DNA of 64,000 bases from a virus. The position numbers and the translations under genes were made by a program. This document shows positions 3,746 to 45,031 of the stretch, in pieces. The notes beneath the pieces were generated by a model. The model did not search any database. It was not told the DNA's origin and was given only the letters and a program-made list of their open reading frames with translations. Location of the stretch: IMG/VR virus record IMGVR_UViG_3300008050_000019; one strand, written 5' to 3'. Each line of letters begins with the position of its first letter. Position 1 is the first letter of the stretch.

Positions 3746-3748
3746 ATA

Positions 3749-3822
3749 CACTCCCTAGTGGATTCGAACCACTGACCTTGAGCTTAGAAGGCTCCTGCGC
3801 TATCCAGCTGCGCTAAGGGAGT
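3749..3822 (-). tRNA. tRNA-Arg (anticodon TCT)
   Basis: Reverse complement folds as a cloverleaf: acceptor ACTCCCT/AGGGAGT (A1:U72), D-arm GCGC/GCGC, anticodon loop CTTCTAA, T-arm AGTGG-TTCGAAT-CCACT. One mismatch in the anticodon stem. Confidence 0.6.
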
Positions 3823-4125
3823 AAATTGGCGCCACATTTAAAGCGCCTGCATATAGAATAGAATCATGTAATATACTACCGGGCCTATATACTCCCGGCA
3901 GGTAACCTGTATATGGTAAACTTGACATTGCCACGATTTATTATATGGCGACTTCTAAATGTCATGTGTCAAGCTCATTACATGATAATGATAAAGCTAT
4001 GGCTTTAATGTTCTAAGTCAGCGCATAATATTAACCCTCGTATTAAACTAATTGATTCCTCACGCTCAATCAGACGTTCGGCGTGTCGCAACCACAACAG
4101 CTGGCTAAGTAGCGTACTAGCCATA

Positions 4126-4210
4126 TGCTCAGAGCGGGAGTCGAACCCGCACTCCCATTAAGGGCGACGGATTTTAAATCCGTTGCGTCTACCAATTCCG
4201 CCATCCAAGC
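4126..4210 (-). tRNA. tRNA-Leu (anticodon TAA), type II
   Basis: 85-nt cloverleaf with long variable arm; anticodon loop TTTAAAA; T-arm GCGGG-TTCGACT-CCCGC; acceptor GCTTGGA/TCTGAGC with two G:U pairs. Confidence 0.6.
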
Positions 4211-4414
4211 TAATTTTCATTCAAGGTTATTTATTCCTTGTTAAAATATAATACCACCCTTTGAATTCAAAGATACTGTTATTTTTCATTAATTTAAATC
4301 AGTCAAGCTTTCTTAAACCAAGAAGCAGGAAATGGCATTCCCATACCCACTAAGCCATAATATACAGAACTGGCCTTGGTAGTTCAATCTTTATTATCTC
4401 ACCCATCTGTGTTC

Positions 4415-4720
4415 CTAAATGCTTTTATTCAAAGTAAATTCTGTCTGAGCAGGAAACACGATCGTTTTAATTCTGTAAGACTGATTCTTAAGTGTGTAGT
4501 TAACAACAGATAAACGGCCAGCAGACACTAATTCATTAACAAAGACAATCATTTTGTTTGCATCTAAGCCGCTAGGAAGAATAATATTTTCGTCATTCAA
4601 GTAATGTACTGAAGTGGATGCCAGCACTGTCAGTGTCATGGGTCCTTCTATGGTCACCTTATCAACCAAATAGTTTTTGAAATCGGCCTTTGTAAAAAAG
4701 GTACTCTTTTTTTTGTTCAC
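4415..4720 (-). CDS. hypothetical protein
   Basis: ORF lying between tRNA genes in the tRNA cluster. Confidence 0.4.
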   Translation of the reverse strand: MNKKKSTFFTKADFKNYLVDKVTIEGPMTLTVLASTSVHYLNDENIILPSGLDANKMIVFVNELVSAGRLSVVNYTLKNQSYRIKTIVFPAQTEFTLNKSI

Positions 4721-4721
4721 A

Positions 4722-4795
4722 CGCCTCCTAGTGGACTCGAACCACCAACCTTAGGTTTAGGAAACCTACGCGCTATCCAATTGCGCCAAGGAGGC
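4722..4795 (-). tRNA. tRNA-Arg (anticodon CCT)
   Basis: Clean cloverleaf: acceptor GCCTCCT/AGGAGGC, D-arm GCGC-AATTGGATA-GCGC, anticodon stem TAGGT/ACCTA with loop TTCCTAA, T-arm GGTGG-TTCGAGT-CCACT. Confidence 0.8.
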
Positions 4796-4911
4796 AATAT
4801 TCCAGCCCGGCTTTGAACCAGGATCTCTCTATTACGAGCGCTTTGACCGCTAAAAGATAAGCTAAGTAACCAAACTTCCGCCCATTCTTTTTTAAGCTAC
4901 TGGATTACTGA
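4796..4911 (-). other. tRNA-like remnant / unassigned structured spacer
   Basis: 116-nt spacer between two tRNAs contains a good T-arm (CCTGG-TTCAAAG-CCGGG) and an anticodon-like stem-loop (AGCG-GTCAAAG-CGCT), but I could not close an acceptor stem. Confidence 0.25.
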
Positions 4912-4984
4912 TACGGCTGGGTGGAATTGAACCACCGACGTCCACCTTATAAGGATGGCGCTCTTACCCCTGAGCTACAGCCGT
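4912..4984 (-). tRNA. tRNA-Ile (anticodon TAT, reads AUA)
   Basis: 73-nt cloverleaf: acceptor ACGGCTG/CAGCCGT (A1:U72), D-arm GCTC-AGGGGTAA-GAGC, anticodon stem CCATC/GGTGG with loop CTTATAA, T-arm GGTGG-TTCAATT-CCACC. Confidence 0.55.
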
Positions 4985-4989
4985 TTACT

Positions 4990-5382
4990 TTAAATGCTAT
5001 CTAAAACAGTTTGCATTTTATCTCGTACATCATCGAGCATTTCATCAATGGGGTCCATCTTCGCTCTAAGCTTATCATGCACCATCTCTTTAGCAGCTTC
5101 TTGTACATGGCGATCATAATCTCCAACCATCATGTCAACTATGTCAAGAAAGCGAAATGATTTCCCGTTAATAGTAAGCTCAACAGCAAAATTCCCGCCT
5201 TTCTCTTTTGCATCAAGAGCAACAGCTTCAACAATGCTTCTGTCTGCACTTATTAGGTTAAGAATTATTGTACCATACACGTTTTTGGAAGAACCTAGAA
5301 CGTCAATAGTACTAAAAGATTCTACACCATCTTTGTATGTAACATCAAAGGCTCTTTTAGTTTTACTTTTAATTTCTTCCAT
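4990..5382 (-). CDS. hypothetical protein
   Basis: 130-aa ORF flanked by tRNA-Ile and tRNA-Met. Confidence 0.45.
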   Translation of the reverse strand: MEEIKSKTKRAFDVTYKDGVESFSTIDVLGSSKNVYGTIILNLISADRSIVEAVALDAKEKGGNFAVELTINGKSFRFLDIVDMMVGDYDRHVQEAAKEMVHDKLRAKMDPIDEMLDDVRDKMQTVLDSI

Positions 5383-5401
5383 CTTCTTTCTTTCTTTTAA
5401 A

Positions 5402-5474
5402 TGGGCCCAGAGGGATTCGAACCCCCGACAAAGGAGATATGAGCTCCCGACTCTAACCGCTGAGCTATAGGCCC
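5402..5474 (-). tRNA. tRNA-Met (anticodon CAT; could be an Ile2/lysidine type)
   Basis: Clean cloverleaf: acceptor GGGCCTA/TGGGCCC, D-arm GCTC-AGCGGTTA-GAGT, anticodon stem GGGAG/CTCCT with loop CTCATAT, T-arm GGGGG-TTCGAAT-CCCTC. Confidence 0.8.
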
Positions 5475-12829: not shown

Positions 12830-14251
12830 TTACCAAAGATCTTCTGAAAATAAATTTGGCGGGTGAGCCAGACTAAAAATCTGCTTTCCTGCGAGAGCTA
12901 TAATACCTGCCTCTTTACGATCTACGTACGTGCCACCGACTGTAACGAATCCTTGTCTTGGGCCGTGTAGTCTAGTCGTGTCTATACCCTTAGCATGCAT
13001 ATAATGGAGAATATTATGATGCCTGTTAGGCTGCGGAAGTGACCATACTTTTCCCGTCTCGTCTTTCACAGCAGCTTGCTTAATCATTGCAGCGCCCAAT
13101 AAGAGACGGAGCGCGGGCAGCTTTATATCATATTCAATTACTTTACGACGAATGTCTGCACCCACCTTATCTCCTGTAAAATGTGCCATTAACAATGGAA
13201 ACAGCTTCGGTTGTGCATAACTCTTCAGCGTATTAGCTAACTCTCCGCGTGTCCATGTATTATCATATAACACAGAAAAATCTGCAAGTGCATTGTCAAT
13301 GAGTGCCTTGTTTTCTTTGCGCATCTTGCAAATTGCGCTAAATGTTGGCTCGATGAAGTCAACGACTTCCCAATCATGTCCTGCAGCATACATATATGCA
13401 CTTAGCTTCTCTAAAGTGTCGATTTTATGTATTATGCAAAGTTCTTTGATATATTTTGGTGTTGCCTTCGAACGAAGATGGTGAAGTCTCATATACCATG
13501 AGCTTTTGAACTTCATCAATGTTACAGTACCAGCGGGACCTATCGCCCAGCCTACGACACCCTCAGAGTCATCAAATTCTCTGACGTCAGATTTTATCTT
13601 TTGAAGATCACCAGATAGTGTCTCATTGATTACAGGCGTTTTAATACCTGCATCACGAAAAAGCTCATCGCATAACCGAACTTCAAGAGCATCTCCATCC
13701 CATTTTACGCGAGCAAGACCCACGAGATCATGTTCATTGTACTTTATAATAATTCTATTTGAAGGTCCGACATACTCAAAAAGCATTGAACCCTCAGAAG
13801 ACCATGATGGGTCAAGAAGTAAAGGATACTTGGCAAGCACTTTTTCAACGCCCTTAGAAACATTCTCAGCCAGCACTTCACAGCCCCGTGTTCTAAAGTT
13901 GACGAGGCCGTCGATTACTGAGCGGATTATTAATGATCCGTCAAGCTTCTCTGGCAATATAACATTACCTGCAGCATGATAAGTATCAAACTCTTTATCA
14001 AGAGTAGGCCTTTCAGTGTAGTTGAAAAACTTTGGAAACCCAGAGGAAAGTATCGTTCCATCAGGGCGAGTCATGACAGAACGAAGGTGATATTCGTCTG
14101 GACCCCATTCGTGCATCACCTTATGTGGAACAATTACAACAACATCACCGATACCAGGAATGTGGCGGTTGTTTGTATAAAATCTTGACGTATCAATATT
14201 TGGTATATTTATCTTCATCGTTGGACCGAGTATTATTATAACTCGGTCCAA
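12830..14251 (-). CDS. RNA ligase (Rnl1-like nucleotidyltransferase)
   Basis: Covalent nucleotidyltransferase motifs in correct order: motif I 'EKLDGSL' (KxDG, close to T4 Rnl1 KEDGSL), motif IV 'EGVVG', motif V 'LMKFKSS'. A clearer T7-type DNA ligase is present elsewhere in the window. Confidence 0.55.
   Translation of the reverse strand: MDRVIIILGPTMKINIPNIDTSRFYTNNRHIPGIGDVVVIVPHKVMHEWGPDEYHLRSVMTRPDGTILSSGFPKFFNYTERPTLDKEFDTYHAAGNVILPEKLDGSLIIRSVIDGLVNFRTRGCEVLAENVSKGVEKVLAKYPLLLDPSWSSEGSMLFEYVGPSNRIIIKYNEHDLVGLARVKWDGDALEVRLCDELFRDAGIKTPVINETLSGDLQKIKSDVREFDDSEGVVGWAIGPAGTVTLMKFKSSWYMRLHHLRSKATPKYIKELCIIHKIDTLEKLSAYMYAAGHDWEVVDFIEPTFSAICKMRKENKALIDNALADFSVLYDNTWTRGELANTLKSYAQPKLFPLLMAHFTGDKVGADIRRKVIEYDIKLPALRLLLGAAMIKQAAVKDETGKVWSLPQPNRHHNILHYMHAKGIDTTRLHGPRQGFVTVGGTYVDRKEAGIIALAGKQIFSLAHPPNLFSEDLW
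14223..14249. promoter_or_regulatory. hairpin overlapping first codons of the RNA ligase gene
   Basis: 9-bp inverted repeat ggaccgagt / actcggtcc with 9-nt loop attattata, immediately after the stop of 14270..15256. Confidence 0.35.
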
Positions 14252-16392: not shown

Positions 16393-16661
16393 ATCCTACA
16401 AGGCTCTATTGGCGCGCACACTCCATCAAGCGTCCACCTTAAAATCTCGATGATATCGCCCTTTTTCGCTAATGGCAAAACACACGTCTCTGCATGCCTT
16501 GTCTCAGTCCGATACCCTTTGAACAAGGGATGCGTTTGTGACGTATTAACACCAATGCTTATGGGCGTCCGCTTTCTCCATAGAATTGCTGCGATATGAT
16601 ATATTTGACCATTCGCTAATGCTAACTGTTTAGCATTTTTATAGATTGATGGATATCTCAT
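16341..16661 (-). CDS. cytidine / dCMP deaminase-like zinc-binding protein
   Basis: 'HAE' ... 'PCRIC' (H-A/C-E ... P-C-x-x-C) zinc-coordinating signature of the CDA fold. Confidence 0.5.
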   Translation of the reverse strand: MRYPSIYKNAKQLALANGQIYHIAAILWRKRTPISIGVNTSQTHPLFKGYRTETRHAETCVLPLAKKGDIIEILRWTLDGVCAPIEPCRICCMQIRKRGLKVRLCL

Positions 16662-17584
16662 TACTTAAAGTCTTTTATGACGCCAGATTTAAGGCCTTGT
16701 GTGAATTTAGAAAAATAATCCTTAGGGTAATCTGCTACTGCATCAATAACATTTTCGTATGCAAATTCTCTCCACCACCCAGACGTTATGCTTGTACAGA
16801 CTTTTGATAGAGCAAGCATCCAAGCTTGTCTCTCAGACAAAACGCCCGGGTGCGGTACCAAGCTTCTTTCGATCGCTAATACTGCTGATTCTTCGATCAC
16901 GGATGCAAGCTTCAGGTCATTCGTTAAAGCATCAAACTTACTCTTATCAACAGCAACCTCTTGCCCATCTTTCTGGAAAAAAGTATATGCAGGGCGATTA
17001 TATAGCTTGACTGCGTCATGAATAGAATCATGGTCGTATTTATAATCAATCTGATCACGATTGAAGAATGCTTTTTTACTTTTATCTAGCGAGGGGAGAG
17101 GGTAGTTATACGTCTCTTTTTCTCGCAATTTTATAAAATCTACGTGTTCTGATTTAACAGTGGCTCCCATCGCCTTCATAAAATGATAGTGATGGACTGT
17201 TTTCCAAAAATGAGGATTATCTTTAAGATAACGATGAGATGACTTTAACGCAAACAGAAGGTCAATGCTTGGAACAAGCCCAAAGTCAGTTTGAAAAGAT
17301 GCTGTATCATTCTTAACAAGAGAATGAAGCATGCGCGAACTCTCTCTCTTAGAGACTAGCTCAAACTCAAGATTAACAGTGCCTTGAACTATCAGATTTC
17401 TCCCTAGGTGCAAATACACTTTTCTTGGTTTGATTGCACTTCTATTTTCTTCAATAAAATATCTTGCATCACTTTCTGTGCCGACAAAGTCAAAATCAGC
17501 ATCGTCTCGAATTTTAAATCTTTGTGATCTTAAAGCAAGGGCACGACTACCAACTAAAATTAGATTAGCAAACTTGTGAGGCAT
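16661..17584 (-). CDS. hypothetical protein
   Basis: 307-aa ORF, no motif recognised. Confidence 0.45.
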   Translation of the reverse strand: MPHKFANLILVGSRALALRSQRFKIRDDADFDFVGTESDARYFIEENRSAIKPRKVYLHLGRNLIVQGTVNLEFELVSKRESSRMLHSLVKNDTASFQTDFGLVPSIDLLFALKSSHRYLKDNPHFWKTVHHYHFMKAMGATVKSEHVDFIKLREKETYNYPLPSLDKSKKAFFNRDQIDYKYDHDSIHDAVKLYNRPAYTFFQKDGQEVAVDKSKFDALTNDLKLASVIEESAVLAIERSLVPHPGVLSERQAWMLALSKVCTSITSGWWREFAYENVIDAVADYPKDYFSKFTQGLKSGVIKDFK

Positions 17585-17849
17585 TCCAACCGCTACTTTC
17601 TTCTAAATCATAAACTTCAATGCCTGTTAGATTTGCAACAAATTTAAGGCTAATCCCTTCGAATATATCGAAGATTGGCGGAGAATGTACGAAACTACGC
17701 TGTGATACTCCTGACTCAAATGGAATCCCGTGTTCATTTGATATTGCAACTGCCTCCGCAAGAAGTAATTCTGCAGCGGCCACTCTATCGTTTATTTGCG
17801 TGCCCACGTCATCTAGCGTTTTTTTGAACAATGCTTGAAGGTTATCCAT
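17565..17849 (-). CDS. hypothetical protein
   Basis: Start codon lies inside the 39-bp palindrome at 17840-17878. Confidence 0.4.
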   Translation of the reverse strand: MDNLQALFKKTLDDVGTQINDRVAAAELLLAEAVAISNEHGIPFESGVSQRSFVHSPPIFDIFEGISLKFVANLTGIEVYDLEESSGWNASQVC

Positions 17850-17878
17850 ATGATTTATTATAAATCATATGGATAACC
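17840..17878. promoter_or_regulatory. perfect 39-bp palindrome (19-1-19) covering a start codon
   Basis: ggttatccatatgatttat-t-ataaatcatatggataacc; contains the ATG of 17565..17849 and sits just after the stop of 17893..18900. Confidence 0.6.
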
Positions 17879-17892
17879 ATTACAACTTATTA

Positions 17893-18900
17893 TTACCAAG
17901 TTTCCCTGATGCGTTTTATTAAAGCTTTTTTGCCCCCAGGGATAGAATTCGCAGTGCTAATCTTCAGATGTTTTCTAGCATATTCGCGCAATTGCTTGAG
18001 TGTAAAATCTTCGAGTGGGTAAATGGTAAACTTAGTCCAGTCTGGTTGAGTTGGCTTAACTACGGGGTGGCCGGCTGGCTGGCTGTGGATATCACTCGGA
18101 CGGCCAAGCTCAAAAGGATCACCACAATCACCATAATCATCACAATCATCGCAATCATCAATGCTCACATCATCATCTCTATATGACCATGTAACAGATG
18201 GCAGTGCTTGTGTATACTCATGCAAAACAGTATACTTACAAACTCTTACTTTCTGGTATGAACAATCATAGGGAACACAAACGACGTCAGCTGGATCCAC
18301 TTCACAGATCAGAATCCTACTTCCGTTACCAAAACCTTCAGCGTATTCAAGCGCGCCGACATGATATCCATAGCTGCATGCTGAGTTTGGGTCATCTGAA
18401 ATCTTGTTTCTGGGCATTTCATTCGTGCAGCCAGGCTTATTAGAGATCGTTTTTGTATGATGGTCAAGATAATCTTGTGTAACAGATTTGTACGCCAAAA
18501 ATGTCCCTTTATCCGTCAGGGGAATATTTTCATGCTCTAAAAATTTATATAGTTGCTCAATAGAGCGGGCGCTTGTATTATTATTCAACCGTATCCAGAA
18601 GTTCATGAATACATCTGGTGATGCGTCGTTCCTTACCATCGAAAGAATTCGTTGAGCCAGCTCAATTGGAATAGCTTCTTTTTTGTAAAGAATAGTATCA
18701 TCATCAGTTACTTCAAAATCACCTGATGCCCAGTTTTTAATTGCACTCTTTGGAGAGGCCAAAGAAAGTGCTTCATCCCAATCTTCTCGAAAGAGTGCAT
18801 CTCGCAATGAAGAAAAGTTATCATCTTCTCTATGTAAGGTCTCTAGTTCACCAGATGGTAATATTAATGTTATGACGTCGTTAGTTATGCTATATTTCAT
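17893..18900 (-). CDS. hypothetical protein with acidic Asp/Cys repeat, downstream partner of the Hsp90 homologue
   Basis: 335 aa; 'SIDDCDDCDDYGDCGD' encoded by a short tandem repeat at 18118-18158. Confidence 0.45.
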   Translation of the reverse strand: MKYSITNDVITLILPSGELETLHREDDNFSSLRDALFREDWDEALSLASPKSAIKNWASGDFEVTDDDTILYKKEAIPIELAQRILSMVRNDASPDVFMNFWIRLNNNTSARSIEQLYKFLEHENIPLTDKGTFLAYKSVTQDYLDHHTKTISNKPGCTNEMPRNKISDDPNSACSYGYHVGALEYAEGFGNGSRILICEVDPADVVCVPYDCSYQKVRVCKYTVLHEYTQALPSVTWSYRDDDVSIDDCDDCDDYGDCGDPFELGRPSDIHSQPAGHPVVKPTQPDWTKFTIYPLEDFTLKQLREYARKHLKISTANSIPGGKKALIKRIRETW

Positions 18901-18910
18901 GTATGCCTTG

Positions 18911-20902
18911 TTATGCTGCTTTTGCAGCGTCCTTTAATAGAATGTAATCCACCCAGTCTGTGATAGTACCCTCATTTACTTCACCAAAACACTTCATCAA
19001 AAGAGGGTAATCCGCAGAAAGCAAAGCTAGATAATCTTCATGTTCTGTTGGGTACACAATACCTTTACATTGTGATAAAAGATATTGAAAATTTGTCCAT
19101 TTCCATGAGATGCCTTTTGTCGCTGCATTTAGATACCTTGATAATATGTGTTCAGCAGGAAGTATAGATTTTGTACTTTTTAACAAAAGTGATGTTGCGT
19201 TTGTGTATCTCCAAGTGCTACTAATACGGTGGTTTTTCCAAGCGATATTTCTAAGTTCATCGATCACTAAAGGGTGCTTTTGTATTTCTTCATAGAAGGT
19301 AGCTCGCCATGCCGAATATGATATACCCTTTACGGTTCCAGGCTTTACCGGCGATTTTTCTGTAGATTTGTACCCGTAAATTTTTGGAAAATCAATGCCA
19401 AGTTTAGCTGCAACTTTCTTGTCTTTATCAATAATATCAAGATAATTTTTCATTTCATGGGGCACAAATCTACACAAAAGAAAGTATACGTCAGTATCTG
19501 CTTGTAGCGACACCCTGGGTATCCAGTTTTCTGATTGCAACGAGTAAACAGCTTGGGGCATAAGACGAAATGCCCTATGCCCATGTTTTGAGTTTGGTAC
19601 TTTCTTTGGTACATCTTTACCAGTCCAAGGTAAAGATGAAATTCTACTAATTGGTATACCTTCGCATCCTTGCTCTGCAACCAGAGATTCCAATTCAGCA
19701 AAAACATCATCTGCCGTGCATCCTGTTGCAGGTCGTAACGTAACAGCACCTGATGGTATCATGTACCCTTTAAGTGCTTTTCTTGTATCAATAATAATGA
19801 TCTGCGTTTGTTTTTTAGGAGGAAGTAGTGCTCTTTTTCCGTTAAAAGTTTTTGCTCTTTTGCATATAAAACTCTTCGGCTTAAAATTAAAGGGCAGTTT
19901 AATTCCAGCATTGCAAAACTTATAATAGAATATTTTCTTCTCCCAAGATGAACATTGAGAATTTTTAACTTTATGTAGTTTTGCTAGTAAATCTGTATAA
20001 AGGGTTGAAATTGTTTTCTTTAGTGCCGCCCTTGTTCTTGGAGTGTATTTTAACTCTTCTCTGTTTGCCGTGAAGTCCACTTCACCTATGTCAAAGAAAA
20101 ACCTGAATCTTGAGTACCAGCCGAAATCATAGTCATTGGTATTCATCACACTAGTAATTTCTTCTGATGAAACTTTGTATGAAATACCTCCCATAACTGC
20201 TTCATTATTGTTGGCCCGGCGTAAAAGTTCTGCTTTTGTACCCTTGAAAGTCACATCATCTAATCTATCAGATATAACGTCAGGGAGATTAAATTTAACG
20301 TTTGCGCTCATGTACTTAAATACATGTCCTGCTTTCAAAAGGAAGGCTCTGTGATCAGCTTGCTTTACAGGAATTGCAATCTCGACGCCTGTTATACCTA
20401 TATCACACTCATCTTCGTATAGCAAGCATAAAATGCCTTCATCTAATTCATCTAATGCAGCATTATATACACGCTTCATACCTTTGTGCCATGAAGTTAT
20501 GTTAAATGATGATGTATAAGAGAATGCAGCTTTTGACCCAATTCCAAGTGTACCAACTTGTTCATTAGTATCACGTTTAGTAGAAGAGCCATAACTAACG
20601 TAAACTCGTATACCTTCCTCTGATAGGCCGGGGCCGTTATCCCGTATCTTTAGAGTCGGTGTTAGTGCGGTTGGTAAGTTAACTTTAATGGGTATGTCTT
20701 CATTACCCGCTTCAGCATTTGCATCCCTAGCGTTAGCCCCATATTCACGTAACACCGCCAATATATTATCTGTATATAACTGATCTCTCATGATACGCAT
20801 CAAGTGTGCGTTATCACCGGCCTTATTAGAAATCTCGAAGCGTATTTCATCGCCGATACCAGTTGTCGTTAATGTTCTGTTTTCTAAATTAACTTTTGCC
20901 AT
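18911..20902 (-). CDS. htpG: Hsp90 / HtpG-family molecular chaperone
   Basis: GHKL N-domain motifs aligning to HtpG in order: 'HLMRIMRDQLYTDNILAVLREYGANARDA' (N box; HtpG [27 protein letters not shown]), 'IRDNGPGLSEEGI' (G1), 'YGSSTKRD', 'VGTLGIGSKAAFS' (G2; HtpG IGQFGVGFYSAF). Middle-domain 'FTANREELKYTPRTRAALKKTI' matches the HtpG catalytic-loop segment '[25 protein letters not shown]'. Length 663 aa is similar to HtpG. Confidence 0.7.
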   Translation of the reverse strand: MAKVNLENRTLTTTGIGDEIRFEISNKAGDNAHLMRIMRDQLYTDNILAVLREYGANARDANAEAGNEDIPIKVNLPTALTPTLKIRDNGPGLSEEGIRVYVSYGSSTKRDTNEQVGTLGIGSKAAFSYTSSFNITSWHKGMKRVYNAALDELDEGILCLLYEDECDIGITGVEIAIPVKQADHRAFLLKAGHVFKYMSANVKFNLPDVISDRLDDVTFKGTKAELLRRANNNEAVMGGISYKVSSEEITSVMNTNDYDFGWYSRFRFFFDIGEVDFTANREELKYTPRTRAALKKTISTLYTDLLAKLHKVKNSQCSSWEKKIFYYKFCNAGIKLPFNFKPKSFICKRAKTFNGKRALLPPKKQTQIIIIDTRKALKGYMIPSGAVTLRPATGCTADDVFAELESLVAEQGCEGIPISRISSLPWTGKDVPKKVPNSKHGHRAFRLMPQAVYSLQSENWIPRVSLQADTDVYFLLCRFVPHEMKNYLDIIDKDKKVAAKLGIDFPKIYGYKSTEKSPVKPGTVKGISYSAWRATFYEEIQKHPLVIDELRNIAWKNHRISSTWRYTNATSLLLKSTKSILPAEHILSRYLNAATKGISWKWTNFQYLLSQCKGIVYPTEHEDYLALLSADYPLLMKCFGEVNEGTITDWVDYILLKDAAKAA

Positions 20903-20908
20903 ATTTCA

Positions 20909-20981
20909 TATGATCAGAGGGACTCGAACCCTCAACATACCAGCCTGTAGTGCTGGGCTCTACCATTGAGCTATGATCACC
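20909..20981 (-). tRNA. tRNA-Val (anticodon TAC), tentative isotype
   Basis: 73-nt cloverleaf: acceptor GTGATCA/TGATCAT (G1:U72), D-arm GCTC-AATGGTA-GAGC, anticodon stem CCAGC/GCTGG with loop ACTACAG (C at position 33 is unusual), T-arm GAGGG-TTCGAGT-CCCTC. Confidence 0.55.
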
Positions 20982-20982
20982 C

Positions 20983-21345
20983 TTACCCTTTTCCGAACCC
21001 TTTCCATTCACCTGGTCTTGTCATAAAAAAGCTAGCTAATGCGGTACCTTCGTCTGGAGCTTTTTTTTCTGGTTGCTTAGGTGTCTCCCGAAACTTGTCA
21101 AAAGCAATATCGATTGCATCCTCTGTTAGATGTGATCCAGTTGGGGGTACTTGCCGTATAAAGTAAGTAACCACATCTACCACCTTTAAATCAGAAATAT
21201 TTCTGTTAGCTACAGCTTTAGTAGCTGCTACCCAGGAATCTGCATCAATGATCTCAGAGCAAAGAACCTCATGCCCACTCAAGTTTTCATAAACAAACCC
21301 CTTATGTCGTGTGTGCACTTCAGCACTGTATATTCCAAACTTCAT
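20983..21345 (-). CDS. hypothetical protein
   Basis: ORF track. Confidence 0.4.
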   Translation of the reverse strand: MKFGIYSAEVHTRHKGFVYENLSGHEVLCSEIIDADSWVAATKAVANRNISDLKVVDVVTYFIRQVPPTGSHLTEDAIDIAFDKFRETPKQPEKKAPDEGTALASFFMTRPGEWKGFGKG

Positions 21346-21507
21346 GTATTATTGTACCTTATATTAATTCTAAGAACACGCTATTTTTTTCTTTTTTTGA
21401 TGAACTCGCTCAAACTTGCATACGCCAAGACACAAAAAAGAGATGGAATTATTATCAAATAAAATATGGCGTAAAACGCATAATCTTGTGCCTTGGCTAT
21501 TATGCGT

Positions 21508-22038
21508 TTAATCATTTGACTTCGAGGCTGCGGCGGGAGTAATGGCTAACAACACAGGTTCGATGCGAAGTCTTTGAGGGTACGTTGTGTATATATATTC
21601 ACCCGTCCATTGGACATAGTTGCCGCTAGCTGTCCAGAAATAAATATACGGTGATGAACTGCCGTATGTCCCTTCATCACCTGGCGCGGGTACCACCAGG
21701 TGGCCATCGGAAGCGTAGTCAGGTGTGACAACACGCATAGTAGAAGTCAGCCTTTTGCTCCCTGAGCTAACCTTTCCCTTGACAACATGGTAAGCGATTG
21801 GTGCTCCAGATTGGCTGAATAGCGTGATATATCCCTGTAGGCCTGGATCTGACGTTAACTCTAAGCGCTTCTTCAAATTATCAACTTCAGCGTTTCCAGT
21901 AAATTTAACAGAGCGTGCCGCCTTTCTTGCCCTCTTTGCCTGGATTTGTTTCTGTGTCGGTGGCGTCCTGTCAGGGACGCATGCCGTGGATGCGCCACCA
22001 AACAACATAATAATTAATAGATTCATAAATCGATTCAT
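21508..22038 (-). CDS. lipoprotein
   Basis: Signal peptide with lipobox MNRFMNLLIIMLFGGASTAC. Confidence 0.5.
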   Translation of the reverse strand: MNRFMNLLIIMLFGGASTACVPDRTPPTQKQIQAKRARKAARSVKFTGNAEVDNLKKRLELTSDPGLQGYITLFSQSGAPIAYHVVKGKVSSGSKRLTSTMRVVTPDYASDGHLVVPAPGDEGTYGSSSPYIYFWTASGNYVQWTGEYIYTTYPQRLRIEPVLLAITPAAASKSND

Positions 22039-22494: not shown

Positions 22495-23673
22495 TTATAA
22501 CCAGTCGCTCTTATCTTGCAAGCCTCTAACTGAGATCGCTACTGGAAACCGAGGAACATATTCTCTATTTGTCAACCCTTGGTAGCGAACAGTAACCATC
22601 TTTCCAATAACGGCATCTGGGTTTTTCCAAATCCATGCAAGCCTATCGAAACTGCCTTCTAATTTTGCTCTGAATGTTGCTCCGCCGCCGTTTGGGCCAA
22701 AATTAGAGCCGGTGGGGGTTTTTAACACAAAAGCACCTAGATGCCCCTTTAAAGCGCCGACGCCCTCTTTAACACCAACGACTTCAAACTCAGCGTCATC
22801 AAATTCTTTACGTTTTAGTAAATTATCTGTGCGTTTACCGCAATAAGGCATATGCGTATTACGAATCATGGTGCCTTCATATCCAGCAGATAGATAACCT
22901 GAATGTAACAATGTTACCTCGGCTTCATCTGGAACAGAGAATTTTGTTTCCACTACTACTACATGATTCGGTACCAGCTGCCCAAGAGCAGCTTTTGCCA
23001 TAAGAAACCTTTTGATAAAAGAGATATCCTGATTTAATGTACCAATTATCGGGCAATCATAAACATGATACTGTACTTGCTTTTGTTTTTCGTAATCAGC
23101 AGGAGTTGCATGCGCGTCTGTTTTTTTAACTGCCTTGATAATTGATTCAAAATCATCTTTTAAGTCATGAGAATAAAGCTCTCCATCAAGCATCGCTTCT
23201 GGATATTTTCGAAAAAAGGGTACAAGTGCCTTTCTGATGTGGGCACAAGCTTCGATAGGTTTTCTGCCCCGTGTGAAAAAGCCATCTTTAGTTGCCAAGC
23301 ATCTAATACCATCAAGTTTTGGCTGTGTAACGCACGGAAACTTAATTTTTCTCTTTTGATCTTCCCACTTCTTTGCGAGTATTGCAGTATACCCAGGTAG
23401 TGCTGCATCAGCGTTGGTGCCGATATCAGTGATGTCTTCAACATACTTCTTTCTGCTCTGTCTCAGAAGATTAGAATTCAGCTCTAGTGTTAGTTGTTCA
23501 TGTTGAGAACGGCCGGCCTTCGGTTTAATGTCTCGTGACGCCGATGTAGTCATCTTACCATTAAGTTTACCAGACACTGTCCAATATTTACACTCATCAG
23601 GTGAATGATGGATCTCCCAGACTTGAGTAGAACCCGTACTGTTAAGTTTAAATAATCGTTTATAAAGCATCAC
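22495..23673 (-). CDS. ATP-dependent DNA ligase (T7/T4 type)
   Basis: Motif I 'KLDGIRC', motif III 'MLDGELY', motif IV 'EGTMIRN', motif V 'LLKRKEF', followed by an OB-like C-terminal domain. Confidence 0.8.
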   Translation of the reverse strand: MMLYKRLFKLNSTGSTQVWEIHHSPDECKYWTVSGKLNGKMTTSASRDIKPKAGRSQHEQLTLELNSNLLRQSRKKYVEDITDIGTNADAALPGYTAILAKKWEDQKRKIKFPCVTQPKLDGIRCLATKDGFFTRGRKPIEACAHIRKALVPFFRKYPEAMLDGELYSHDLKDDFESIIKAVKKTDAHATPADYEKQKQVQYHVYDCPIIGTLNQDISFIKRFLMAKAALGQLVPNHVVVVETKFSVPDEAEVTLLHSGYLSAGYEGTMIRNTHMPYCGKRTDNLLKRKEFDDAEFEVVGVKEGVGALKGHLGAFVLKTPTGSNFGPNGGGATFRAKLEGSFDRLAWIWKNPDAVIGKMVTVRYQGLTNREYVPRFPVAISVRGLQDKSDWL

Positions 23674-24231: not shown

Positions 24232-24705
24232 TTATGACGCATTCGGCACCTGCAAAAGAAATGCTTCTACGTCATCAAGGAGTTCAAGATTTATGGCATA
24301 ATACTCGTCACACTCAGGTTCGATACTGTCAACCATAGCATCATAATCGCCACAATCATCGCATGTCCAGTTAACAAACTGTCCATAAAATCTATTATTT
24401 TGATGTTTTTGATACTTTGACAAAACAGAGCAAAGGATAGAGAGGGCTCTTTTTGATGCTGCAGTATTAACTATAGCTAAACCAGATTTAAGTACATCTG
24501 CCCTTAGATGGTATCTATTGTCTATCCACTGTGCCCACCCGCCATTAGTAACTTGGTAATTCATATGCCCAATAGACACTACATACTGATCAGGTATGGG
24601 TAATGCACCAATAAAATCAGTGTATGGCTTGCCTTTTAAATCACCGCTTGACCAACGAGTATGTGCAGTGTCCATTGCTTCCTGCATCTTCCTATAGTTT
24701 TTCAT
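24232..24705 (-). CDS. hypothetical protein
   Basis: ORF track; acidic Cys/Asp segment 'CDDCGDYD'. Confidence 0.4.
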   Translation of the reverse strand: MKNYRKMQEAMDTAHTRWSSGDLKGKPYTDFIGALPIPDQYVVSIGHMNYQVTNGGWAQWIDNRYHLRADVLKSGLAIVNTAASKRALSILCSVLSKYQKHQNNRFYGQFVNWTCDDCGDYDAMVDSIEPECDEYYAINLELLDDVEAFLLQVPNAS

Positions 24706-39442: not shown

Positions 39443-39680
39443 CGCCTTTTTTTGCCTTTTTTAAGAAAAGAATATCTTCTCGTGATATTTTTTCTATTCT
39501 ATTATCTACATAGACGTTGCAGAAGGGTCCATGAGCCCATACATCATAACGTCTATGAAATGTCATGTTTGTTTTACCAGAATTAAAACCCTCTTGTAAC
39601 GAGAGAATTATTCCTATTTTATTTAATGATGATATCACAATAAGATCACCAATTTCATATAAAGTTTTATCTACACACAT
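39429..39680 (-). CDS. small 'GDLV-motif' family protein
   Basis: 'YEIGDLIVISS' motif. Confidence 0.35.
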   Translation of the reverse strand: MCVDKTLYEIGDLIVISSLNKIGIILSLQEGFNSGKTNMTFHRRYDVWAHGPFCNVYVDNRIEKISREDILFLKKAKKGDGKK

Positions 39681-41532
39681 TTGAAAAAATTCCCCTTAGA
39701 ATGTTTGTGTATCGGGACGCATTTAGAGGATATAGTTCTATCAATCTTGCCACATCATTAAAGACTATAGAATCCCATTGCAGAAAGAACTGTGTTTGTG
39801 TTATTATATACATTTCGTATGCATCCCCTGGTGTGCATATACCTACACCACAGTTGCTCGTATTTAGCGCTACATCACTTTCATTGAACCCAGCAACTGT
39901 CTGGGCTGCTTCGTCTGTAATAAGAATGATGTAAGGGTATGCCCCTGTTGATGTTACAGTAGATTCTCTCCAATTGATAAGTGCTGGATTTGTGCTGTTC
40001 GCTAAATCATGAACTACATCGTATGAAGGCTCTACACCTGGATATGATGCGGTAAGATTGTTCAATGCTGCAGAAAATACAGTAAAATCAACGAGATTTA
40101 CTAGTACATTATAATTATCTCTTCTACCAGGAAATACAACTAAACCAAACCTATGTTCTGTCCCTTGAAAGTCTGCAACATAATTACTTATCCCTGCTTG
40201 CAGAGCGAACATAGCTTGTGTCATTGAACCTGAGCCATCTATCACAAAAATTATATCTACCTTATCATGTGGTGTAAGATCCTCATCGATGAGCCCATCA
40301 CAGTCATTGTCAACCCCATCACAAGATTCTTGCTCAGGATAAACTGGTCCAATGCAGCTTGACCAAATGCCTGAAGTGCATGTTCTCTCGCCTAAAACGC
40401 ATTGTCCGATACCAGCCGTAGCAGGATCTCCGCATGCGTCTGTTAACTCATCGATTGTGCCGTCGCAATCATCATCCCAGTTATTACACACTTCGGGCTC
40501 GGTAGCAAAAGAATAACATGTACCCCATACACCATTAGAATCGCATATTGAAATGCCGGTACCGCAATTGATAAGCTCTCCCGTAGCGTGATCTAAGACA
40601 TTTTGTCGGCATACTCTAGCGTCACCGACTGTACATGCACAATCTTCATCGATTATCCCATCACAGTCATTATCAAAACCATCACATATTTCTCGTACTG
40701 GTTTTCTAGCATTACACCCTATCCAGTTGCCCACGTTGCAACTTTCTATACCACTTTCACATGAGGTTCTGCATAACCTCTCAAGCCCTTCATCAATTGC
40801 ACCATTACAGTCATTATCAAAACCATCGCAAATTTCAGGCGAAGGGTGTACAGCACCAACGCAATATGTTTCTTCTGATGTACATATTTGAGTGCCAAGT
40901 TGACACAAACCAACTTCACTTGACGGGCCGCATGAATCTAAAATTTCTTCGTCAGTAATACCATCACAATTATTATCAAAACCATCGCAAGTTTCTGGTG
41001 TCGGCAAAATAACGCCTGTACATTGTCCCCACACACCATGAGTACACCTTTGTTTTCCAGTTCTGCAAACGCTAGGGCTAATATAACTGTCGACAGCTGG
41101 ACCAGTCCAGCAATCCCGTGAATAATTGTCAATTACACCATTACAGTCATTATCAAAACCATCGCAGATTTCTATCCCGCCTGGGTTTATTTCGGCTATA
41201 TTGTCGTTACAATCGTTATCACAAGAGTTGTAGCCATCACCATCACCATCATGTCCTTCGTCAACTAAACCATCGCAGTCATTGTCCAAACCATCACAGA
41301 TTTCATTAACTTGTCCGATGAACCCTTCACAAAATGCCATTTCATTTTTAGCATCGCATGAAGTAATCCCCTTTTGGCAAGTGCCAATAGAATCTTTAAG
41401 ATTATCTGTTATTATTTTTCCGTTATTTATTATACACGGGCGTGGGGACTGACATACTCTCGATAAGTTATCATCTTCACATGCAGCAATAAAAAGCAGG
41501 GAGATAGATAAAAGTATATATTTCAACTTCAT
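39667..41532 (-). CDS. lipoprotein with seven Cys-rich CDGxDNDCDGxxDE (MopE-like putative metal-binding) repeats and C-terminal vWA-like domain
   Basis: Lipobox signal 'LLFIAAC'; repeats 'EICDGFDNDCDG(I/L)IDE' x7; C-terminal MIDAS-like 'DIIFVIDGSGSM'. Confidence 0.6.
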   Translation of the reverse strand: MKLKYILLSISLLFIAACEDDNLSRVCQSPRPCIINNGKIITDNLKDSIGTCQKGITSCDAKNEMAFCEGFIGQVNEICDGLDNDCDGLVDEGHDGDGDGYNSCDNDCNDNIAEINPGGIEICDGFDNDCNGVIDNYSRDCWTGPAVDSYISPSVCRTGKQRCTHGVWGQCTGVILPTPETCDGFDNNCDGITDEEILDSCGPSSEVGLCQLGTQICTSEETYCVGAVHPSPEICDGFDNDCNGAIDEGLERLCRTSCESGIESCNVGNWIGCNARKPVREICDGFDNDCDGIIDEDCACTVGDARVCRQNVLDHATGELINCGTGISICDSNGVWGTCYSFATEPEVCNNWDDDCDGTIDELTDACGDPATAGIGQCVLGERTCTSGIWSSCIGPVYPEQESCDGVDNDCDGLIDEDLTPHDKVDIIFVIDGSGSMTQAMFALQAGISNYVADFQGTEHRFGLVVFPGRRDNYNVLVNLVDFTVFSAALNNLTASYPGVEPSYDVVHDLANSTNPALINWRESTVTSTGAYPYIILITDEAAQTVAGFNESDVALNTSNCGVGICTPGDAYEMYIITQTQFFLQWDSIVFNDVARLIELYPLNASRYTNILRGIFSNVCR

Positions 41533-43212: not shown

Positions 43213-45031
<1,819 letters not shown>

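Follow-up and report, generated by a model that had tools for sequence, protein, structure and literature searches.

We wanted to establish whether a gene that looks, at first sight, like a phage-borne Hsp90 encodes a chaperone at all. The gene lies at positions 18911-20902, on the minus strand, of a 64,000-nucleotide stretch of viral DNA (IMG/VR record IMGVR_UViG_3300008050_000019; this whole stretch is hereafter called the window). An earlier note, made from the sequence alone, had taken its product for an Hsp90/HtpG homolog accompanied by an acidic protein with an Asp/Cys repeat, encoded immediately downstream. The comparisons described below give a different answer: the two genes are rIIA and rIIB. 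We read the locus, with high confidence, as a divergent rIIA-rIIB module of a jumbo phage, and the pair as most likely serving early accessory counter-defense. The two genes, taken from the list of open reading frames (ORFs), are as follows.

18911-20902, minus strand: rIIA, 663 amino acids, isoelectric point (pI) 9.1, no membrane-spanning segment
17893-18900, minus strand: rIIB, 335 amino acids, pI 4.9, starting 10 nucleotides past the rIIA stop codon

The 663-residue protein matches the RIIA family phrog_612 of PHROGs (E = 3.8e-84, residues 7-357), the RIIA families of that collection being phrog_612, phrog_2979, phrog_30832, and phrog_3661. By BLASTP, the protein and rIIA of phage T4 are 31% identical over 281 residues (E = 9e-29); their alignment sets YGSSTKRD opposite YFSSSKAE of T4 and FTANREELKYTPRTR opposite IAPSREALSLDDRTR of T4. 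When a profile of the rIIA family, built from 54 sequences, was compared with T4 rIIA by hhalign, the two aligned with a probability of 99.96% (E = 4.5e-39) over 323 columns, which cover residues 1-337 of the window protein. An AlphaFold2 model of the protein (mean predicted local distance difference test score (pLDDT) of 83.6) was searched against BFVD with Foldseek; the best matches either bear the name RIIA or are unnamed (E-values as low as 8.8e-36, probability 1.00) and include RIIA of KVP40, 44RR2.8t, Marfa, and Bmoc. The full-length template modeling scores to T4-type rIIA, 0.40-0.50, are compatible with a match of the N-terminal half only and do not decide whether the fold of the C-terminal half is shared.

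The downstream 335-residue protein is matched by rIIB families, i.e. phrog_609 RIIB (E = 2.3e-61) and phrog_3803 RIIB (E = 1.8e-39), over residues 2-232, and is 30% identical to T4 rIIB over 207 residues (BLASTP, E = 5e-35). A protein identical to it carries the precomputed annotation Pfam PF26926, Phage_T4_rIIB; our direct Pfam search of rIIB returned no match, the set of models searched being one without the rIIB model. The reciprocal direction holds as well in that searches with T4 rIIA, and comparisons with T4 rIIB, recover the window proteins. The two genes lie on one strand with a gap of 10 nucleotides, in the order and orientation seen in T4, and rIIB also follows rIIA directly in three relatives (L011, L012, and L013; 29-35% identical, from contigs 47-436 kb long). 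Further, a natural rIIA-rIIB fusion is found in phage RB43 (Q56C47, 1049 amino acids), and phrog_609 itself has 1055 positions, the two ends of which match the two window proteins.

The rIIA ORF is not a chance one because an identical protein is on record from eight contigs, the longest of 308,593 bp, and because alignments covering 77-100% of its length were obtained with approximately 100 relatives that are 30-37% identical to it. The four of these eight contigs that are listed come from four different samples. A megablast search with positions 17000-22000 against 50,697 phage records gave no matches, and the phage is therefore one without a close sequenced relative in that collection. The source of the locus is an uncultivated jumbo phage, represented by a contig of ~309 kb. 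A tblastn search matched the rIIA family in 2,852 of the 50,697 phage records, and rIIB is reported from about 5% of phages in a 2026 review (PMC13434031). The family is thus common, at ~5% of sequenced phages, and the rarity in phages that the earlier note had seen in this gene does not hold. A scan of positions 17400-21600 found promoter and terminator sites no more numerous than in shuffled sequence and therefore says nothing on transcription units; rIIB is probably cotranscribed with rIIA.

The rIIA protein can be divided into an ATP-binding domain, a second domain, and a C-terminal domain, which together with the conserved motifs map to the window as follows (the coordinates of the N box, G1, lid, and G2 having been verified).

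20318-20845, minus strand: GHKL (Bergerat-fold) ATP-binding domain, residues 20-195, defined by HATPase_c_3 and the conserved motifs
20723-20746, minus strand: N box EYGANARD, residues 53-60 (E53, N57, and D60)
20627-20641, minus strand: G1 box DNGPG, residues 88-92 (D88, G90, and G92)
20570-20593, minus strand: lid segment YGSSTKRD, residues 104-111
20531-20554, minus strand: G2 box GTLGIGSK, residues 117-124 (G117, G120, and G122, plus K124)
19898-20317, minus strand: second, transducer-like domain, residues 196-335, ending in a long helix (residues 288-313)
20030-20065, minus strand: conserved loop NREELKYTPRTR, residues 280-291, with invariant R281-E282, a candidate counterpart of the catalytic Arg loop of the Hsp90 middle domain
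18914-19825, minus strand: subfamily-specific C-terminal domain, residues 360-663

The ORF, the three boxes, the lid segment, and the loop are all where the earlier note had placed them. Pfam recognizes HATPase_c_3 at residues 50-153 (E = 1.9e-10) and, below threshold, HATPase_c. The residues Glu-53, Asn-57, Asp-60, Asp-88, Gly-90, Gly-92, Gly-117, Gly-120, and Gly-122 are invariant both in an alignment of 47 and in one of 54 sequences, T4 included. The GHKL-plus-transducer ATPases are defined by a Bergerat fold for ATP binding and, behind it, a second domain in contact with the nucleotide site; rIIA has this arrangement. Five representatives of rIIA clusters, 1,070-1,158 amino acids long (P0249, P0253, P0335, P0344, and P0366), carry an intein in the G2 box, exactly at GIG|[C/S]K, i.e. 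between the counterparts of Gly-122 and Ser-123 of the window protein; these inteins have Hint_2 and LAGLIDADG_3 endonuclease domains, Cys-1, a terminal His-Asn, and Cys or Ser at position +1. Inteins typically occupy conserved, functionally critical sites, and their placement in G2 is consistent with an important ATP site. PADLOC gave domain-level matches of the rIIA N terminus to TmtA only (E = 7.8e-6); a TmtA-type defense system was considered and set aside, the match being read instead as shared GHKL ancestry.

Compared with T4 rIIA (NP_049616, 725 amino acids), the window protein is alike over the N-terminal ~335 residues, which comprise the GHKL and second domains (29-31% identity), and keeps every ATP-site residue as well as the S/N-R-E loop; its gene likewise directly precedes rIIB, in the same orientation. 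The two proteins differ in length, the window protein being 62 residues shorter, and in the C-terminal half (residues ~340-663), in which neither the PHROG search nor hhalign, whose alignment ends at ~337, detected any likeness in sequence to T4 rIIA. When 1.84 billion representatives were searched exhaustively with this half, 379 clusters were returned at E <= 1e-3, and nearly all of these are proteins of 650-830 amino acids matched at about residues 360-690, i.e. proteins of the same architecture. These 379 cluster representatives form a subfamily that is set apart by the C-terminal half. The missing similarity to T4 does not exclude membership in rIIA because the C-terminal region is highly variable within the family (PMC7824862).

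How far, then, does the Hsp90 likeness go? The family profile aligns to residues 16-179 of Escherichia coli HtpG (hhalign probability 94.5%, E = 8e-8, 128 columns), and within this alignment the helix LYTDNILAVLREYGANARDA falls on the HtpG helix with which the earlier note had compared it. When the profile was searched against the Protein Data Bank (PDB), the 60 best matches were all N-domains of Hsp90, TRAP1, Grp94, or HtpG (best E = 1.3e-6); a family profile was needed for this search, and phmmer with the single rIIA protein gave only a chance match. Local scores of the N-domain hidden Markov model (HMM) were 35.8 bits for HtpG, 11.0 for MutL, and 2.2 for GyrB, and the best NCBIfam match of rIIA is the Hsp90-like sacsin ATP-binding domain (E = 2.6e-9), under the cutoff of that model. 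With T4 rIIA alone as the query, the seven best PDB matches are Hsp90 N-domains (E = 0.06-0.33). These searches support the view that, among solved structures, the ATP-binding domain of rIIA is closest to that of Hsp90, and the resemblance is a property of the whole rIIA family, T4 included, and not special to this phage. What is shared with HtpG, TRAP1, Grp94, and Hsp82 is an ATP-binding domain with helix 1, an N-box helix of the form 'LYS-x-K...RE...NA-DA', the G1 and G2 boxes, and a lid rich in glycine; a second domain with an S-R-E-x-L loop and then a long helix is a candidate further likeness. UniProt labels two rIIA-like phage proteins, A0A8S5ULM6 and K4I3N1 (Escherichia phage EC6; BFVD entries), as 'HSP90 family protein' / 'Molecular chaperone, HSP90 family'; automated annotation has thus also mistaken rIIA for Hsp90.

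The likeness stops short of membership in the Hsp90 family. Identity is just 13-16% in structural alignments, and the family models are unmatched: Pfam HSP90 (PF00183) gave no match to rIIA even at E <= 1, and the NCBIfam HSP90 model (PRK14083), whose cutoff is 455 bits, reached only 18.8 bits, confined to residues 51-137, and so missed the family threshold. The similarity to HtpG is over after 128 columns, full-length Hsp90 chains in the PDB profile search were matched in the N-domain alone, and nothing in the C-terminal ~300 residues of rIIA matched the middle or C-terminal dimerization domains of Hsp90. Apart from the candidate loop and helix, rIIA has no counterpart of the remaining middle domain. 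A literature search on rIIA plus Hsp90 found no paper on a specific link. The HMM search that the earlier note had proposed, with HATPase_c and HSP90 models, therefore splits: HATPase_c_3 is matched and HSP90 is not, RIIA and not histidine kinases supplying the best HMM matches while no Hsp90 middle-domain model finds one. The claim of homology with Hsp90 stands insofar as the protein is a GHKL ATPase whose ATP domain is nearest to Hsp90; as to family, it is an ortholog of T4 rIIA.

The loop NREELKYTPRTR deserves separate mention. The pattern [SN]RE.L is present in 46 of the 47 family members, and 37 of the 47 share RE.L.{5}[TS][RK] with HtpG. An HMM of the second domain sets sRE on HtpG residues 329-372, with 7 of 2000 shuffles equaling that score, and pairwise alignments with HtpG give the same loop register (z = 1.4 for window rIIA and z = 4.5 for T4 rIIA). 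The similarity to Ser-335-Arg-336-Glu-337 of HtpG emerges only in this targeted test, and weakly, the hhalign alignment ending before the middle domain. The earlier note had the loop lining up with the catalytic loop of HtpG; the register and the invariant Arg-281-Glu-282 agree with this, with weak support, and no middle-domain model is matched. We consider the sequence pattern suggestive of an Hsp90-type catalytic Arg loop in which Arg-281 would be functional. The alignment of the second domain also bears on other relatives of rIIA. In the transducer loop of GyrB and MutL, the sensor residue is a Lys; in rIIA it is apparently the Arg of the SRE loop. Across the GHKL-plus-transducer ATPases (ParE, GyrB, T6 topoisomerase II, MORC2, MORC3, SMCHD1, MutL, and Topo VI-B), sequence likeness to rIIA is far below that of Hsp90, and rIIA has none of their Toprim, endonuclease, CW, or hinge domains.

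The downstream gene, which the earlier note had described as a possible co-chaperone, client, or metal-binding partner because of its DDCDDCDDYGDCGD repeat, is real and is rIIB. It is built of three parts, an arrangement seen across 40 relatives.

18205-18900, minus strand: conserved rIIB core, residues 1-232
18016-18204, minus strand: hypervariable acidic disordered linker, residues 233-295, defined by pLDDT and the alignment of relatives
18118-18159, minus strand: Asp/Cys stretch DDCDDCDDYGDCGD, residues 248-261 (verified coordinates)
18118-18160: 9-bp tandem repeat in the linker, unit TGTGATGAT, encoding Cys-Asp-Asp on the coding strand (Tandem Repeats Finder)
17896-18015, minus strand: conserved SAP-like (helix-extended-helix) C-terminal tail, residues 296-335, not present in T4 rIIB

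In T4 rIIB (NP_049889, 312 amino acids), residues 106-311 pair with residues 28-233 of the window core, and the gene is downstream of rIIA in both phages. The T4 protein is ~80 residues longer at the N terminus and stops as soon as the core is complete, whereas window rIIB and the relatives that cover 98-100% of it add the acidic disordered linker and a conserved SAP-like tail of ~40 residues. There is thus a large metagenomic clade of rIIB with both additions, neither of which T4 rIIB has. The tail shows a tentative resemblance to the DNA-binding SAP domain of Ku70. The rIIB profile searched against PDB sequences returned only low-complexity noise (best E = 0.12). Regarding the idea of an ADP-ribosyltransferase for the core, the canonical H-Y-E or R-S-E triad is not evident among the invariant residues of the 40 relatives, and a literature search found no paper tying rIIB to that fold.

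The Asp/Cys stretch looks like low-complexity sequence generated by slippage, since it coincides with a 9-bp tandem repeat (4.8 copies, 85% matches), is disordered, and has Cys residues that are not conserved. Residues 249-284 of the linker have a pLDDT below 50. In the 40 relatives, the linker is 34-137 residues long with a median of 30.6% Asp plus Glu, and it lacks Cys altogether in 28 of them and has three or more in 9. A conserved Cys-based metal site in rIIB was considered and is rejected in view of these 28 relatives, the 9-bp repeat, and the predicted disorder. Sporadic CxxC...CxC spacings, zinc knuckle-like, occur in the linkers of P0124 (14 Cys), P0136, P0180, P0182, P0203, and P0206; a few relatives may therefore bind metal, in a sporadic and not a conserved manner. 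Elsewhere in the window, a 157-residue ORF with a weak DMP19 match (positions 24232-24705, minus strand) contains an acidic Cys-containing stretch, TCDDCGDYDAMVDSIEPECDEYY, that recalls the rIIB linker.

What would such a pair do for the phage? T4 rIIA and rIIB are needed only when the host has RexAB, an abortive infection system that depolarizes the membrane (10.1101/2025.11.20.689424). rII modules from five phage genera, less than 40% identical, also counter lambda RexAB (PMC11879866), and a RexAB-dependent need for rII is known for T4, MM02, EdH4, SUSP1, and N4 (PMC11879866; 10.1101/2025.11.20.689424). Further, expression of RIIB suffices as the trigger of a bacterial gasdermin defense (PMC10312443). 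By homology with T4 and other divergent rII modules, the rIIA-rIIB pair of this phage is most likely an accessory counter-defense that operates early in infection, and it would permit phage growth in hosts with abortive infection systems of the RexAB type. We envisage rIIA as an ATP-driven dimeric clamp, like other GHKL-plus-transducer ATPases, in which Arg-281 of the second domain would complete the ATP site as a sensor or catalytic residue and in which the C-terminal domain of rIIA and rIIB would supply binding to a target or partner.

Several points weigh against this assignment. First, identity with the T4 proteins is only ~30% and does not extend beyond the N-terminal half in rIIA or beyond the core in rIIB; specificity may therefore differ, and another defense is a possible target. 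Second, T4 rII is annotated as membrane-associated, but both window proteins lack a hydrophobic segment, with 19-residue hydropathy peaking at 0.96 in rIIA and at 1.03 in rIIB. Third, the catalytic role of the Arg rests on a weak alignment. Finally, the molecular mechanism of rII is not settled even in T4 (PMC11879866), and one published view has rIIB as a transcription factor (PMC7824862).

The last of these points leads to the main rival reading, which places the action of the pair at DNA or chromatin instead of the membrane: rIIA would be an ATP-driven clamp of the MORC or topoisomerase kind, rIIB a nucleic acid-binding regulator (a transcription factor) working through its SAP-like tail, and protection from Rex an indirect effect. 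The two proteins would jointly modulate transcription, in phage or host, or the state of the nucleoid. The G2 box of rIIA has the form GxxGxGxK and its Pfam match is to HATPase_c_3, both of which are common to MORCs. The MORC- and topoisomerase-like fold of rIIA, its basic character (pI 9.1), the lack of a membrane segment in either protein, the likeness of the rIIB tail to the DNA-binding SAP domain of Ku70, and the placement of rIIB among phage transcription factors by Iyer et al. (PMC7824862) point the same way. However, T4 rIIB has no SAP-like tail, so the core function of the family must lie elsewhere than in DNA binding by the tail; Pfam finds no DNA-gate, Toprim, CW, or coiled-coil domain in rIIA; the N-domain is nearer in sequence to Hsp90 than to MutL or GyrB; and, in the databases, rII proteins of the T4 type are annotated as membrane-associated or as protecting membrane integrity. 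We consider a DNA-directed role unlikely for the pair as a whole, with nucleic acid binding by the SAP-like tail a putative activity of the rIIB of this clade.

The window also contains chaperone and vault-like genes (GroEL, MoxR, and MVP), which the earlier note had correctly recognized and had connected with the supposed Hsp90; they are listed here with two further genes.

43213-44874, minus strand: Cpn60/GroEL-like protein (E = 1.8e-65)
34867-36171, minus strand: MoxR-type AAA_5 ATPase, adjoining the DUF2201 protein
33433-34866, minus strand: DUF2201 von Willebrand factor A (VWA)/metallopeptidase protein
30704-33280, minus strand: major vault protein (MVP)-like protein, 858 amino acids (MVP_shoulder, E = 3.8e-19; Vault_3, E = 2.5e-8)
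39667-41532, minus strand: 621-residue protein with six putative metal-binding motifs of the MopE type (PF11617, E = 4e-39) and a VWA domain

To our knowledge, major vault protein domains are unusual for a phage. The GroEL, MoxR, and MVP-like genes are at least 9.8 kb from the rII pair, the MVP-like gene being the nearest, and the neighbors of the pair in the relatives L011-L013 are different ones (among them DNA ligase, RNase T, and NUDIX genes). On account of this distance and of these other neighbors, we see no link between the pair and the chaperone or vault genes; a role in chaperoning or vault assembly has no specific support, and nothing ties the pair to folding or assembly of an MVP shell. 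The count of three ATP-dependent chaperone systems in this phage likewise falls, the 663-residue protein being rIIA and not a chaperone. Hsp90 is a housekeeping chaperone, whereas rIIA is an accessory counter-defense gene paired with rIIB. That the protein is a true Hsp90/HtpG chaperone folding or assembling a vault-like shell or capsid, with the Asp/Cys protein as its co-chaperone, client, or metal-binding partner, is a reading that could draw on the nearness of its ATP-binding domain to Hsp90 among solved structures, the SRE-type loop at the position of the catalytic Arg, the two 'HSP90 family' labels in UniProt, and the Cpn60, MoxR-type AAA+, and MVP-like genes in the same window, and it is very improbable given the unmatched HSP90 models, the similarity limited to the N-domain, the unrelated C-terminal ~300 residues, the far stronger orthology with T4 rIIA (E = 4.5e-39), which is dispensable except with Rex, and a partner that is rIIB with Cys residues that are not conserved.

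The immediate surroundings of the rII pair differ from those in T4. In T4, rIIA.1 and gene 60 lie upstream; in the window, a tRNA-Val gene (anticodon TAC; positions 20909-20980, minus strand) lies directly upstream of rIIA. It ends 6 nucleotides ahead of the rIIA start codon and fills the gap between rIIA and the upstream ORF at 20983-21345. ARAGORN and Rfam concur on this gene (49.4 bits; gathering score 29); its anticodon loop reads A-C-U-A-C-A-G, in which position 33 would be C, the usual nucleotide being U. Five further tRNA genes are clustered at 3748-5474 on the minus strand (Arg-TCT, Leu-TAA, Arg-CCT, Ile-TAT, and Met-CAT). An ATP-dependent DNA ligase is encoded upstream of rIIA (22495-23673, minus strand), and the relative L011 also has a ligase just upstream of rIIA. 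Two genes downstream of rIIB lies a DUF7275/DUF7277 protein (16661-17584, minus strand; phrog_2141, E = 2.6e-87), and an RNA ligase is found at 12830-14251.

Overall, the pair is a divergent addition to the long-known rIIA/rIIB module, and the main value of the analysis is as a correction: the supposed rare Hsp90 of a phage is in fact rIIA, which is common, and the 'metal-binding partner' is rIIB. Returning to the counter-defense assignment, an Arg-Glu loop that is invariant and apparently sits where Hsp90 has its catalytic loop suggests point mutants for the classic plating on lambda lysogens. Tentatively, and with the odds against it as a whole, the rIIA family, T4 included, may have split off from the Hsp90 branch of GHKL proteins, keeping the split active site of Hsp90, in which the N-domain binds ATP and an S-R-E loop of the second domain brings in the catalytic Arg, and would then act as a dimeric clamp driven by ATP. 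In this reading, the core of rIIB may be a degenerate ADP-ribosyltransferase-like one, and rIIB of the jumbo phage clade also has a SAP-like tail that would bind nucleic acid. The residues for mutation under a split active site would be Glu-47, Asn-51, and Arg-278 in T4 (Glu-53, Asn-57, and Arg-281 in the window protein). If true, descent from the Hsp90 branch would provide the first concrete, mutable mechanistic hypothesis for rII, which has been enigmatic for nearly seven decades.

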